Shown here: positions 21,289 through 26,126 of the stretch, one piece after another
How the letters are laid out: the number at the start of each line of letters is the position of its first letter
Numbering within the stretch: the stretch's first letter is position 1
Origin: an uncultured Bacteroidales bacterium
GTDB lineage: Bacteria; Bacteroidota; Bacteroidia; Bacteroidales; JAGOPY01
Direction of reading: 5' to 3'
Length of the DNA stretch: 56,737 bases
Assembly: GCA_964644135.1 (NCBI GenBank)
Contig: CAZXWD010000005.1
Location: 4,491 to 61,227, forward strand
Program-made: the position numbers and the translations under genes
Notes under the pieces: generated by a model
Seen by the model: the letters and a program-made list of their open reading frames with translations, nothing else
What the model was told of the DNA's origin: nothing
The model's database searches: none

Positions 21289-21609
21289 TCAGTCTTCATC
21301 AGGATTCTCCGAAGGTTCTACGAAATTGCCCTTGTCAACAGTTTCATCTTCACCGTCATCGCCTGAATGGACTTTTTCCATCTTCTGGTCTTCCTTTTCA
21401 AGATCGCTTTTAGAATCCACCTTAACAGGTATTTTCACCAAATACACGGCGTCTTCTGTTTCCAGTGTCACACCATGAAAAAATTCACCATTTGGCTTAT
21501 TGATTCGCCTCAGATGGTTCGACCACCCATCGGGGTAAAGCTCATGAAGCTTCCTCCGCATCTCGGGTGCCAGTTTTTCAATACTGGTAATAGCTCTTCT
21601 TTTGGTCAT
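21289..21609 (-). CDS. Small hypothetical protein with acidic C-terminal tail
   Basis: Start MTKRR at 21609; YPDG...LETEDAVYLVKI resembles a conserved Bacteroidota hypothetical; D/E-rich tail. Confidence 0.7.
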   Translation of the reverse strand: MTKRRAITSIEKLAPEMRRKLHELYPDGWSNHLRRINKPNGEFFHGVTLETEDAVYLVKIPVKVDSKSDLEKEDQKMEKVHSGDDGEDETVDKGNFVEPSENPDED

Positions 21610-21771
21610 TTTGATTGTGAATAAATACTTTCGAAATTTAGAATGAAAATCGATTGAAATCAAGTATTATTTTTGGTTATGGTCATTTTTTTTAGAAAAT
21701 CTTTCATACTGAGCCTCAAATTGTTCCATAGCCAGGAAGAAACAAAAAAAGTACGTCTTTGTTTAATGCTT

Positions 21772-22203
21772 ATGAAAGTTTTCAATCTGTCGTACAATGA
21801 TAAGGAATGCCTTGCCGAGGTCTATGCCATTACCGGTAAGCCTTATGGATTGATCCGGAGCCTCAGGAGAGGCGGTTCAGGCTCAGTAAGAGGCATATTG
21901 CTGGAAGCTCCGCTGGATATCATGAAATTGTTCGAAGGCTTTTCTTATCAAAAGTATTGCAACATACAGGAGATGACGAATGGGATCATCATTGGCTTCA
22001 GGTCAAGATTGGAATCTTATGGAATACCCATTGGTTTTAATGAGATAGCCCGGATGGATATTTTGAATTTAAAGGATCGAGAAGGCAAAGTGGTTCTTGA
22101 AATTGAAAATAAGCAGAATGAATCAATAAAGATTGAGTATTCAAGGTTTGAATCCAGCGCCATCCGTAAGTTCATAACCGGTCTTAAAAATAACATTGTC
22201 TGA
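21772..22203 (+). CDS. Conserved hypothetical protein
   Basis: Start MKVFNLSYND at 21772; GKPY..GGSGS..NI..NGIIIGFRSRLESY recalls a Bacteroidota hypothetical family. Confidence 0.7.
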   Translation: MKVFNLSYNDKECLAEVYAITGKPYGLIRSLRRGGSGSVRGILLEAPLDIMKLFEGFSYQKYCNIQEMTNGIIIGFRSRLESYGIPIGFNEIARMDILNLKDREGKVVLEIENKQNESIKIEYSRFESSAIRKFITGLKNNIV

Positions 22204-22251
22204 TTAATCTTCTTAAACAATCCTTTGAGCAGTAATCAGTGACTTCCATAA

Positions 22252-22279
22252 TTGTCCTATAATTAATATTATGTTAAAT
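22252..22279 (+). other. dif: XerC/XerD dif recombination site (chromosome dimer resolution)
   Basis: TTGTCCTATAA-TTAATA-TTATGTTAAAT: 11-6-11 layout; XerD arm identical to E. coli dif; C arm ends in ATAA; intergenic between convergent genes. Confidence 0.85.
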
Positions 22280-22297
22280 TGCTTACTGAGTAACTAT

Positions 22298-22325
22298 AGT
22301 CACTGAGTGAAATATTATGTTAAAT
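22298..22325 (+). other. Second, degenerate dif-like site (perfect XerD arm, divergent C arm)
   Basis: AGTCACTGAGT-GAAATA-TTATGTTAAAT. Confidence 0.5.
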
Positions 22326-22339
22326 AGTGTCTTTATTAT

Positions 22340-22371
22340 AAAGGGAGGACTCCTTCTGGCATCCTCCCTTT
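22340..22371. terminator. Hairpin, probable terminator between convergent genes
   Basis: AAAGGGAGGA-N12-TCCTCCCTTT. Confidence 0.55.
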
Positions 22372-22403
22372 CGTCTATATCTTAATTCCTTATTTCAGAT
22401 CAA

Positions 22404-23543
22404 TCATTTCTCAAGCTTAGCATTTACAGCTTTAAGTTTTTCTTGCATGCCAAGACGGGTGTATATCTCTTTCAATGATACAAGAGTATTCACATCGTTA
22501 GGCTGCAGTTCAATGGCCTTTTCAAGGTATGGTAAAGACTTCTTCAGCAAATCATCAGCTTTTGCTTTTTCTGCATCGTATTCATCTACGGCATCCAATG
22601 GAAGGTCATTGGCTTTTTCAAGAATTTTGGCTGCCTTGTTAACATACAAAGCCCCAATGTTATAATTAGCCTCAAAATAATCCGGATCCAGGTTGATAGC
22701 GTTTTTATAAGCATCTTCTGCCTTCTCAAACATTCCAAGCTGATCGTAGTTTGTTCCCACCGCAAAGAAGATGGTCGGGTTTGTTTTATCTTTCTCTATA
22801 GCTTTTTCGAGATTTTCCAGCGCCTTCTTGGTGTCATTTCTGGCAAGGTAAATATTGGTTTCAGAAATGAGAAGGTCAAAATTCTCCGGGTAGATCTCCC
22901 TGGCGGTCTTCAAGACTTCCAGGGCTTCTGTGGTATCCCCCATTGCCTTATTGATTTCAGACATTGATATATAAATCTCAGGATTGCTGTAATCAAGCTC
23001 CAGGACTTTATCGTAATAGTCGAGGGCCTTCTCGTTCTCTCCTGCCAGCCCGGCAGATACAGCGGCATTGAACATCGAAATGGTATCGGTCCTTCCTATT
23101 TCACTGTAAACATCAAAAGTATTCTTGAACTGATCGGAGGCCTCTGAAAAATTATTGTCATTGTAGGCCATAACACCTTTATTATAATATCCTTGTGCCA
23201 GGCCGGCCATGTTCAATTTGATCTGTTCAACATACTTCTCCTTTTCGTCATATTGTACCGACTTTTGATATGACTCATAAGCAATATCAATTGCATTAGG
23301 CACCTTTTTATACAAAGATGAATCTACACCGGCAGCAATGTCCTGGTAAATGGCACCTCTGTAAAACCATGCCTTGGGATCGGCCATTGTTTTTTCGTGT
23401 TCAACGGCTTCATCTATGGCTTCCTTTGCCTTTTCGAGCTTTCCGTTTCTCTGGTAGTTGTAGGCAGTAACAACTTTACTTCTCTGAGCAAACCCCGCTG
23501 ATACCAATAAGATCAGGGTTAATATCAAAGCAATCTTTTTCAT
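22404..23543 (-). CDS. Exported tetratricopeptide-repeat protein
   Basis: Signal peptide; multiple TPR helices; directly downstream of gyrA. Confidence 0.88.
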   Translation of the reverse strand: MKKIALILTLILLVSAGFAQRSKVVTAYNYQRNGKLEKAKEAIDEAVEHEKTMADPKAWFYRGAIYQDIAAGVDSSLYKKVPNAIDIAYESYQKSVQYDEKEKYVEQIKLNMAGLAQGYYNKGVMAYNDNNFSEASDQFKNTFDVYSEIGRTDTISMFNAAVSAGLAGENEKALDYYDKVLELDYSNPEIYISMSEINKAMGDTTEALEVLKTAREIYPENFDLLISETNIYLARNDTKKALENLEKAIEKDKTNPTIFFAVGTNYDQLGMFEKAEDAYKNAINLDPDYFEANYNIGALYVNKAAKILEKANDLPLDAVDEYDAEKAKADDLLKKSLPYLEKAIELQPNDVNTLVSLKEIYTRLGMQEKLKAVNAKLEK

Positions 23544-23639: not shown

Positions 23640-26126
23640 TTATTCAGCGCTTTCTATTTCATCCTCATCTTCCTCAACCGGATCAACGGCCTCAACTCTT
23701 GCCACTGAAGCAATGATATCGTCATCCCTGAGGTTTATGAGCTTCACACCCTGGGTAGCCCTACCCATAACCCTGAGGTCAGATATACCCATTCTTATAA
23801 TGATTCCCGACCTATTTATGATCATCAGATCGTCCTCGTCGCTCACTTCCTTGATTGTAATAAGCTGGCCGGTTTTTTCGGTCACGTTTAGTGTCTTGAC
23901 CCCTTTGCCTCCCCTGTTGGTAACCCTGTAATCTTCAAGCCGGGAACGCTTTCCGTATCCATTTTCTGAAACCACCAGTATGTCGTAGTTGCCATTTTCC
24001 ACACAAACCATTCCCACTACTTCATCTTTGGGGCCTGCAAGGGTTATCCCCCTCACTCCTGCAGCATTCCTGCCCATTGCCCGTACCTTGGATTCGTGGA
24101 ACCTGATTGCCCTGCCTGATTTAACAGCCATCAATATTTCGTTCTCTCCATTTGTCAGTTTGGCCCTCAGCAGTTCGTCCCCCTCATTGATGGTAATGGC
24201 ATTGATACCGTTTTGCCTTGGCCTCGAATACGCCTCGAGCGGAGTCTTTTTAATGACCCCTTTCCTGGTGCACATTACTATGTACTTGCTTTTAATATAC
24301 TCCAGGTCTTTGAGGTCTTTTGTGTTTATGTAGGCACGCACCCTGTCATCAACGGGGATACTGATGAGATTCTGTATGGCCCGTCCTTTGGATGTTTTTG
24401 TGCCTTCCGGTATCTCAAATACCCTGAGCCAGTAGCATCTTCCCATTTCGGTGAAAAACAACAGGTAATCGTGGTTGTATGCCACAAAAAGGTGCTCTAC
24501 AAAATCTTCATCTCTTGTCACGCTGCCCCTGGAACCTCTTCCTCCCCTGCCCTGCTTACGATATTCATTGAGGGATGTACGCTTGATGTAACCCAGGTGC
24601 GATATTGTGATCACAACTTCCTCGTTGGGAACGGTATCCTCAATCCTGAAGTCCTCAGCCGAGAATTCGATCTTCGTCCGGGGTTCGTCATTAAATTTTT
24701 CTTTCAGTTCGAGCATTTCCTCCTTAATGATCTCCATCCTCATTGGTTCATCGGAAAGGATCTTTTTGTAATGCTCTATCTTATTCATCAACTCATCATA
24801 CTCTTCCTTAATTTTCCCCCTCTCGAGCCCCGTGAGCCTTTGAAGCCGCATATCGAGGATTGCTTTGGCCTGAATTTCTGTCAGACCGAATTGTGAAATA
24901 AGCCCTTCCTTTGCTTCGTCAGGTGTCTGGGACCCCCTTATCAGTGCGATCACCTCGTCGAGATTATCAAGGGCTATCAGCAAGCCTTCCAGTACGTGGG
25001 CCCTGTTCTCAGCCTGTTTCAGCTCATATTCAGTGCGCCTGACCACCACGTCATGCCTGTGGTCGACAAAATGGCGGATAAGGTCCTTAAGGTTTAGCGT
25101 ACGGGGCCTGCCGTTCACCAGCGCTACATTGTTCACATTGAATGAGGTCTGAAGCGGTGTCATCTGGTAAAGCTTGTTCTTTACCACATTGGCAACTGCT
25201 TCTCTTTTAAGCTCATAGACTATCCGAAGCCCTTTTCTGTCCGATTCGTCTCTTATGTCGGATATTCCTTCGATCTTCTTATCTATTACAAGGTCGGCGG
25301 TTTTCCTGATCATTTCGGCTTTGTTGACCATATAAGGGATTGAAGTGGCAATCAGCCTTATCCTTCCGTTCGGCATCTCCTCTTCCTCCATTTCGCCCCG
25401 TATCAGGATCCGTCCTTTTCCTGTTTCAAACGCTTCCCTGACTCCGTCGTACCCATAAATGATCCCGCCTGTCGGAAAGTCAGGCGCCTTTATGTGTTCC
25501 ATTAACTCAGGGATCGTAATTTCCTTATTCTCAATATATGCAACAATTCCATCAACTACCTGCCCCAGGTTATGCGGAGCCATGTTGGTAGCCATGCCCA
25601 CAGCAATACCCGAAGCGCCGTTTACTAGCAGGCAGGGAAGTTTTGATGGCAGCACGGAAGGTTCTTTCAGGGTATCGTCGAAATTCAATTGGAAATCTAC
25701 AGTATCCTTATCAATATCGGTGAGCATCTCCTCGGCTACTTTTTTAAGCCTTGCTTCTGTGTAACGCATTGCAGCCGGGCTGTCACCATCTATAGACCCG
25801 AAGTTGCCCTGTCCGTCAACAACCGGGTAACGCAACGACCAGGGCTGTGCCATTCTGACCATTGCATCGTATACCGAAGAATCGCCGTGCGGATGATACT
25901 TACCAAGCACCTCCCCTACTATCCTTGCCGATTTCTTGTAAGACCTGTTTGAATAAACACCCAGGTCCATCATACCGTACAATACCCTTCTGTGCACCGG
26001 CTTTAAGCCATCTCTTACATCCGGCAGGGCACGTGACACAATGACCGACATCGAATAGTCGATATAGGCCGCCTTCATTTGAGACTCAAGGTTTACCCTT
26101 AGTATCTTTTCTTCAGAAGATTCCAT
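23640..26126 (-). CDS. gyrA: DNA gyrase subunit A
   Basis: [15 protein letters not shown] catalytic Tyr, QGRGGRG GyrA-box, C-terminal pinwheel repeats. Confidence 0.99.

Follow-up and report, generated by a model that had tools for sequence, protein, structure and literature searches.

A REP array unit carrying a copy of the XerD half of dif lies directly beside dif in an uncultured Bacteroidales bacterium

The DNA discussed here is a stretch of 56.7 kb (the window) from a metagenome-assembled genome (MAG) of an uncultured Bacteroidales bacterium, in which a gap of 200 bp between two convergent genes, with gyrA just beyond, holds the chromosomal dif site. This dif is a genuine, ordinary site of chromosome dimer resolution. 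Directly after its XerD arm stands a 46-bp unit in which an imperfect palindrome (P) is followed by a linker (L). It is very probably one unit from the system of repetitive extragenic palindromes (REPs) and REP-associated tyrosine transposase (RAYT) that belongs to this genus, added beside dif. The linker repeats the XerD half of dif and brings with it a second, perfect XerD arm. An earlier interpretation made from the letters of the window (the sequence-only reading) had explained this second arm either as the scar of an integrative mobile element exploiting Xer (IMEX) or as part of a compound dif with extra Xer-binding arms.

The inserted unit and its dispersed family

The strings on which the sequence-only reading was built, from GACTTCCATAA through the dif core to the second XerD arm, are all where it placed them (Table 1). 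Within the window the arm TTATGTTAAAT occurs exactly only twice, and each copy falls within AATATTATGTTAAAT, 15 nt that recur without mismatch and in direct orientation at 22265-79 and 22311-25, 46 bp apart, with an imperfect palindrome centred on TATA between the two arms. The genome of the window (G000; 3.55 Mb, 298 contigs, 45.8% G+C) has a sister species (G001), also an "uncultured Bacteroidales bacterium" MAG, and the comparison of the two at dif is simple. G000 has exactly 46 extra bases, TGC followed by the palindrome and AATATTATGTTAAAT, and in G001 the unit is absent from the orthologous locus, where TTATGTTAAAT runs straight into AGGGTTTTTATTATAAAAGGGAGG and the unique left and right flanks are adjacent. 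The view that the second arm is inserted DNA derived from a mobile element has been borne out.

Table 1. Features of the dif locus (window positions), followed by one REP cluster in a related genome
Feature	Positions	Strand	Description
Chromosomal dif	22252..22279	+	TTGTCCTATAA 22252-62, TTAATA 22263-68, TTATGTTAAAT 22269-79
46-bp insertion, one REP array unit	22280..22325	+	junction TGC, palindrome P2, linker copy
Palindrome P2 (the REP itself), imperfect, 28 bp	22283..22310	.	TTACTGAGTAAC-TATA-GTCACTGAGTGA, inverted repeat I2
Linker L	22311..22327	+	AATATTATGTTAAAT(AG), 15-nt perfect direct repeat of 22265-79
GACTTCCATAA, supposed extra XerC-like arm	22241..22251	+	11 bases preceding dif
TCAGTGACT	22236..22244	+	9 nt that match the palindrome (left arm and centre); pairs with 22298-22306 as inverted repeat I4
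18 bp between XerD arm and AGTCACTGAGT	22280-97		
"Site 2" of the sequence-only reading	22298-325		AGTCACTGAGT 22298-308, GAAATA 22309-14, TTATGTTAAAT 22315-25
G+C-rich hairpin	22340..22371	.	AAAGGGAGGA-N12-TCCTCCCTTT, inverted repeat I3, 10-nt arms 100% complementary
Upstream convergent gene	21673..22203	+	176 aa, without Pfam match; 3' end aligns with G001
Downstream convergent gene	22404..23543	-	379-aa TPR protein; 3' end aligns with G001
gyrA	23640-26126		beyond the TPR gene
REP cluster of G012	C2:156000-316000		loci L121-L130; RAYT gene at 220137-220664

The inserted unit is one member of a dispersed family. Units inside the G000 arrays at C163:2634 and C34:24292 are the same but for a single base. 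The general form of the unit is TTCACYSAGTGAC-TATA-GTCACTSRGTGAA followed by ATATTATGTTAAATAGCT; the palindrome is 28-30 bp long with a foot of TTCAC...GTGAA, the linker is AATATTATGTTAAATAG, and units often follow one another head to tail with a period of 46. About 37 palindromes in 28 arrays are spread over 18 contigs of G000, in convergent, divergent and co-directional gaps, and all lie between open reading frames (ORFs) and none inside one when ORFs of at least 90 aa are considered. The P-L unit is present at no fewer than 13 other intergenic loci, every one of them without a XerC arm. A genome-wide scan for TTATGTTAAAT, which the sequence-only reading had itself proposed, tells against its view of the second arm: there are 22 exact copies in G000, where about 3.5 would be expected by chance (our own calculation), and 18 of them adjoin palindromes. 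In full, one copy is dif, one stands beside dif, 16 follow the same palindrome elsewhere, one follows a variant palindrome, and three are unrelated. The second XerD arm is part of the linker of a REP unit.

The family has a narrow distribution. The palindrome of the G000 type is found in G000 and G001 and in no other genome of a comparison set of 41 related genomes from one order and 28 families. A search for the palindrome-plus-linker pattern in 185,579 species representatives returned only G001, and a metagenome scan added two sediment contigs from a third lineage, at about 82% identity. The junction of dif and REP was found in no other genome, neither of the two metagenome contigs covering dif. 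Array positions are mostly orthologous between G000 and G001, as expected for REP populations that are inherited vertically. Several contigs of G000 end inside REP arrays (C19:42048-42093, C37:26576-26603 and the end of C34), and contigs C37 and C34 are, judged from G001, neighbours joined through a REP; the family is one cause of the fragmentation of this assembly.

Because the unit is repeated, it must be asked whether the layout at dif is a coincidence or a mis-join of the MAG through a repeated k-mer. The 298 contigs of the assembly often end in these repeats, and 16 k-mers inside the unit are common to other arrays. Against this, contigs in the Logan collection from three public runs contain both the passage from the unique left flank through dif into the palindrome (22103-22311) and the passage from the palindrome through the linker into the unique right flank (22298-22700), which shows that the assembly did not create the join. 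In the sister species the two flanks lie next to each other, and a perfect 15-nt repeat at a spacing of 46 bp is no chance event. The layout is far beyond chance, and an origin by coincidence or mis-join is scarcely credible. The number of 46-bp units at the locus could exceed one, because a joint that "goes back 46" was seen. No plain-dif allele was found in the Logan contigs of the source metagenomes, but such contigs drop rare variants and the evidence is weak.

An ordinary chromosomal dif

The first site was correctly taken by the sequence-only reading for the chromosomal dif. It is the single full site in G000 (ATAA-N6-TTATGTTAAAT occurs once), and G001 has its dif in the same gap between the same two flanking genes. 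The same pattern is present in 26 of the 41 related genomes, nearly always once, while a reversed control pattern gave 7 matches in total. The 28-mer recurs with 0-5 changes in G001 and 10 other relatives, and the twelve retrieved loci conform, with few changes, to (A/T)TGTCCTATAA-TTAATA-TTATGTTAAAT, usually followed by AG. In the supplement of Kono 2011 (PMC3025954) the dif predicted for Robiginitalea biformata is TTGTCCTATAATTTATATTATGTTAAAT, identical to 22252-79 at 27 of 28 positions, and the sites given there for Dyadobacter, Gramella and Pedobacter are very similar. The recombinases are present as well. G000 encodes a XerD equivalog at C235:1792-2661 (TIGR02225, cut-off 329.6 bits, score 346) and, at C278:509-1381, another gene of Xer type (269 bits), and both are found in G001 too. 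With all 28 bp intact and homology as the guide, the site is predicted to function as dif, where XerC on 22252-62 and XerD on 22269-79 would together resolve chromosome dimers.

The dif of Escherichia coli (GGTGCGCATAA-TGTATA-TTATGTTAAAT) has the same 11-6-11 layout, an identical XerD arm and a XerC arm that ends in ATAA. Like known dif/XerCD sites, the present one is a single copy, intergenic between convergent genes, in a genome with xerC- and xerD-type genes. Its 28-bp core shows no difference from known dif sites, and the REP unit abutting the XerD arm is its sole peculiarity. Some relatives, namely G013 (C14:903827, C15:332309), G034 (C13, C61, C65, C68), G005 (C10:186794) and G028 (C665:22926), have 2-4 dif-like ATAA-N6-TTATGTTAAAT sites whose central regions diverge. 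These sites are candidates for genuine Xer-exploiting integrated elements, for example microvirus proviruses like those known from Bacteroidales.

The two further Xer arms claimed by the sequence-only reading have not survived comparison. The bases GACTTCCATAA, seen as a tandem extra XerC-like arm, differ in G001 and in all 11 relatives examined, and their resemblance to a XerC arm is most likely due to chance. The left arm of the supposed second site, AGTCACTGAGT, is the right arm of the palindrome and agrees with the XerC arm in only 2 of 11 bases. Of the compound dif, therefore, neither the extra XerC arm nor "site 2" as a Xer site stands, and what is kept is the possibility that XerD binds the orphan arms, discussed below.

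In an IMEX scar, a circular element with a dif-like attP would have integrated at dif through XerCD and then been deleted almost wholly, leaving a hybrid site and a second XerD arm. Formally the insert does look like the product of a Xer integration, as the direct repeats at its ends contain the XerD arm together with 4 nt of the central region, and genes for XerC and XerD are present. Xer-dependent proviruses are also on record in Bacteroidales (PMC3091885); the microviruses concerned lie at dif-like sites. Xer-exploiting elements were thus already known from this order, where the sequence-only reading had said that it was not aware of such a layout in Bacteroidota. However, all 46 inserted bases make up one REP unit that is found nearly identical elsewhere, and nothing specific to another element is left. 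Since the P-L unit occupies at least 13 loci without a XerC arm, Xer integration at dif cannot be the mode by which it spreads. The left arm of "site 2" is not a XerC arm, and a duplex circle of 46 bp is too small to be a plausible Xer substrate. Known IMEXs (CTXphi, VGJphi, TLCphi and the gonococcal island; the Bacteroidales microvirus proviruses BMV1-7, PMC3091885) likewise insert at dif and are bounded by a duplicated part of it including the XerD arm. Unlike them, the present insert has neither cargo nor a full second dif-like site, its unit is found at many loci other than dif, and a dedicated Y1 transposase gene is associated with it. The genome-wide distribution of the unit largely refutes an IMEX scar, which is left as a very improbable origin of the second arm.

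The cognate transposase

The palindrome family has its own cognate gene, a RAYT-like HUH/Tyr (Y1) transposase of predicted activity at C19:41485-42057. A search with the Pfam model Y1_Tnp gave a weak match at C19:41506-41676 of G000 and another on C32 of G001. The corresponding ORF of 190 aa has an HUH motif (PNHFHFM) and a tyrosine motif (YIHGNPVKAGLV) and matches NF047646, "REP-associated tyrosine transposase", with E = 1.3e-14. Its best match in the Protein Data Bank is TnpA-REP of E. coli (4er8), in an alignment that spans both motifs. In G000 palindromes stand on both sides of the gene, the stop codon lying inside the downstream copy, and the G001 ortholog, at 98% identity, has the same palindrome-flanked arrangement.

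The association of gene and repeat extends to other genera. Orthologs at 49-50% identity are found in G002, G004, G005 and G012, each flanked on both sides by palindromes of 30-38 bp whose arms differ (CTCGGGCTACC..., GCTGTAGTACG..., ACGTACTACC...) around the common centre ACTATAGT. These palindromes are dispersed, with 10-26 copies, in the four genomes and in no further one of the 41; the six genomes that have an ortholog (identity of at least 49%) are the same six that alone hold ACTATAGT-centred palindrome families. Co-occurrence of gene clade and repeat is thus complete and the arms change while remaining complementary, which is the pattern of a REPtron. That the orthologs of four other genomes carry ACTATAGT-centred palindromes of their own argues for a REP/RAYT system rather than the scar of an IMEX.

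Quentin 2018 (PMC6006769) described a Bacteroidetes subclass of TnpA-REP proteins of about 179 aa, with the motifs NH[LIV]H and YIH[QN]NP and with atypical REPs that lack GT[AG]G. The motifs of the present protein, NHFH and YIHGNP, are close to these. The system resembles REPtrons (subclasses 2.6 and 2.4) in its short, imperfect and strictly extragenic palindromes in tens of copies, in a single cognate HUH/Y1 gene between palindromes, in arms that are specific to each lineage, and in being inherited mostly vertically, with copies at orthologous positions in different species. It differs in that units form direct tandem arrays with a fixed period of 46 and a constant linker, that the linker copies the XerD half-site of the host dif, that the 11-nt arms are in turn small palindromes (TCACTSAGTGA), and that the conserved element is the centre of the palindrome, ACTATAGT, and not a 5' foot.

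The REPs of G012 (genus g2) have another form. They are A5-stem-T5 palindromes, solitary, with unique flanks and without linker, and none lies within 1.2 Mb of dif. On a contig of 2.9 Mb, 11 of 20 fall within 160 kb around the RAYT gene (Table 1), and these REPs thus cluster strongly near the transposase gene.

G000 encodes further proteins of this kind. In a region outside the window (C18:2550-3650), a second RAYT-like gene on the minus strand (C18:2808-3398; motifs MPNHYHF and YIHHNPQKH; NF047646 E = 1.9e-14) is flanked by a different repeat, built of tandem 11-bp units GATGTCTTCCA and palindromic variants, whose 16-mers are present in roughly 30-35 copies in G000. Gene and repeat have the look of another REPtron with a family of repeats to itself. 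A further two paralogs are located at C23:14266-14559 and C34:8620-8901.

Several points weigh against the addition of a RAYT-associated REP unit to a terminal dif. The RAYT-like protein scores below the curated cut-offs of both models (54 bits against 80 for NF047646, 21 against 23 for Pfam Y1_Tnp). The REPs lack the GTAG or GT[AG]G hairpin foot of classical REPs, an absence shared by the atypical REPs of the Bacteroidetes-dominated subclass 2.6 (Quentin 2018, PMC6006769). A single palindrome folded as single-stranded DNA reaches -1.5 kcal/mol, no better than shuffled sequence. Only the P1-L-P2 doublet folds strongly (-14.8 kcal/mol, z = -4.0), into a single long hairpin that has the linker in its tip. 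This recalls a REPIN, in which two inverted REPs make one long hairpin, yet judged by their asymmetric positions the palindromes are direct. G000 and G001 are both MAGs in fragments, with contig breaks at the REP repeats, and with two species a gain in G000 is not distinguishable from a loss in G001. Finally, the placement of dif at the terminus was not confirmed, GC skew being weak and noisy in this family. The cumulative skew of the window turns near 16-20 kb with the right sign, and equal or larger turns are seen on many G000 contigs of 30 kb or more. Skew is also weak in G012 (20 samples on the 2.9-Mb contig) and G013 (400 kb contiguous around dif), with p = 0.11 for left against right. 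GC skew cannot decide the terminus here, because the signs are weakly consistent but not significant.

The linker as a copy of the XerD half of dif

In this genus alone the palindromes form direct arrays with a period of 46, and the linker AATATTATGTTAAATAG that separates them has the very sequence of the XerD half of dif. It consists of a second XerD arm, preceded by the 4 nt with which the central region of dif ends and followed by the 2 nt (AG) found after dif in relatives, and it shares with dif the 15 nt of AATATTATGTTAAAT, or 17 when that AG is counted. For a unit of 46 bp at this composition, the chance of such a 15-mer match to dif is estimated at about 4e-6. Matches to the pattern CTATAG-N8-24-TTATGTTAAAT number 17 in G000 and 14 in G001, and there are none in the 39 other genomes. 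Since this type of dif is phylum-wide and the linker is confined to one genus, the linker would be the derived copy. Through it, G000 has acquired about 17 orphan XerD arms, and because a transposase-associated repeat carries so many, finding a perfect XerD arm is not enough to establish that a Xer site is present. In the literature searched we found no relevant paper on REPs together with XerD or dif, and no REP family that has a recombinase half-site as its linker.

A further proposal is more speculative. In it the REP/RAYT system has captured the XerD half of dif as its linker, and the family was born at dif or keeps homing to it, or the orphan arms are real binding sites of XerD; we regard this proposal as rather unlikely. 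Between the XerD cleavage position and the left end of the captured piece there are 1-4 nt, for which reason an intermediate cut or bound by Xer may have been joined to a REP.

It is also conceivable that the second arm and the roughly 17 orphan arms form a functional compound site, retained because they bind XerD, with possible roles in extra loading of XerD next to dif or, like XerD-only sites reported from Bacillus subtilis, in the unloading of SMC. REP clusters of E. coli, the bacterial interspersed mosaic elements (BIMEs), have linkers that carry IHF sites, and their REPs alternate in orientation. The short conserved linkers studied here similarly coincide with the site of a host DNA-binding protein, but the units are direct, and the host motif is a recombinase half-site from dif with putative binding. 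Bacillus subtilis reportedly has XerD-only sites that lack a XerC arm. As at those sites, there are XerD arms here without a XerC partner in several copies per chromosome, but they ride on a mobile repeat, do not cluster visibly near dif, and bind XerD only putatively. A passage in PMC12322038, citing Karaboja 2021, gives a precedent for a role of such arms, in that XerD unloads SMC at the B. subtilis terminus.

Among the copies linked to palindromes, 18 of 19 in G000 and 14 of 15 in G001 have the arm without any change, which would agree with retention for binding. At orthologous loci, however, the palindromes and flanks are about as conserved as the linker, so that no extra constraint on L is detectable. 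The copy on C74 has decayed in G000 (TTTTGTTAAAT, against TTATGTTAAAT in G001), and in one array the place that L occupies in G000 is taken in G001 by an unrelated spacer of 29 nt. The arrays do not visibly gather around dif, none other being present on the dif contigs of the two species (61 kb and 76 kb), and G001 manages with a plain dif. A functional compound site is unlikely.

Array dynamics and the route to dif

The addition of a REP unit to dif fits the behaviour of the arrays elsewhere. The number of units differs by one 46-bp step at 3 of 17 orthologous loci (16 arrays and dif): upstream of the RAYT gene G000 has 1 unit and G001 has 2, on C163 the numbers are 3 and 2, and at dif they are 1 and 0. 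In one orthologous array the first spacer is the dif-like linker in G000 (C34:17233-17320) and the 29-nt GTGCTGAAAAAACTGTTCCGGGAATTTTT in G001 (L057:1532-1615), which is evidence for conversion or replacement of the linker. Arrays thus gain, lose and convert units. As the end of dif is made of the same 15-17 nt as an array unit, dif offers an array-like substrate, and the process that lengthens arrays by one P-L unit may take the XerD half of dif for an array end.

Three routes would lead to this outcome. The one ranked first is a single-strand cut-and-paste, catalysed by the RAYT, into the linker or next to it. Alternatively, template switching or gene-conversion repair from an L-P-L donor could have used the identity of 15-17 nt. 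It is also possible that dif was the birthplace of the P-L unit and that G001 later lost the unit by deletion between the 15-nt repeats. These three cannot be separated from each other, and Xer recombination is not needed for the layout.

REP arrays also bound larger differences between the two species. Segments of 2-2.5 kb that bear genes and are bounded by REP arrays in G000 (C47:13830-16315, C33:6308-8430 and C25:5689-8096) are absent at the orthologous loci of G001 (L066, L072 and L069), and REP arrays thus coincide with breakpoints of indels or rearrangements between G000 and G001.

Other features of the intergenic gap

On the other side of dif, TCAGTGACT corresponds to the junction of left arm and centre of the palindrome and pairs perfectly with 22298-22306. 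The match is marginal, as shuffling the 52 nt upstream of dif gave an equally good score in 55 of 2000 trials (p ~0.03), and no REP remnant was seen left of dif in G001. It may be an old remnant of a REP or the product of chance.

The G+C-rich hairpin that follows the insertion is probably the terminator of the convergent genes (the TPR gene). Similar hairpins lie 3' of dif in G001, G006, G010, G012 and G023, and the hairpin AAAGGGAGGA...TCCTCCCTTT is seen within about 15-60 bp after dif in several genera of the family (L004, L008, L010, L011 and L012). Together, dif and the hairpin form a conserved intergenic module. Tandem Repeats Finder and a simple terminator scan called nothing between 22100 and 22500, the latter passing over the hairpin because its loop exceeds 8 nt. 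A scan of 21500-23000 with Rfam gave only a sub-threshold match to a snoRNA and no known RNA family.

Implications

The comparison extends the phylum-wide dif type TTGTCCTATAA-TT(A/T)ATA-TTATGTTAAAT to an uncultured family of Bacteroidales. It also defines a Bacteroidales clade of RAYTs whose REPs share the centre ACTATAGT and whose arms co-vary between genera, a concrete substrate for testing how the "atypical" RAYTs of Bacteroidetes recognise DNA. If the orphan arms are real XerD-binding sites, a selfish repeat has seeded the chromosome with them, and they might influence the unloading of SMC, the traffic of FtsK and Xer, or chromosome rearrangement. In that case the places where a protein of chromosome maintenance binds would be spread anew by a mobile repeat, in parallel with the IHF sites of E. 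coli BIMEs and the XerD-only sites of B. subtilis.

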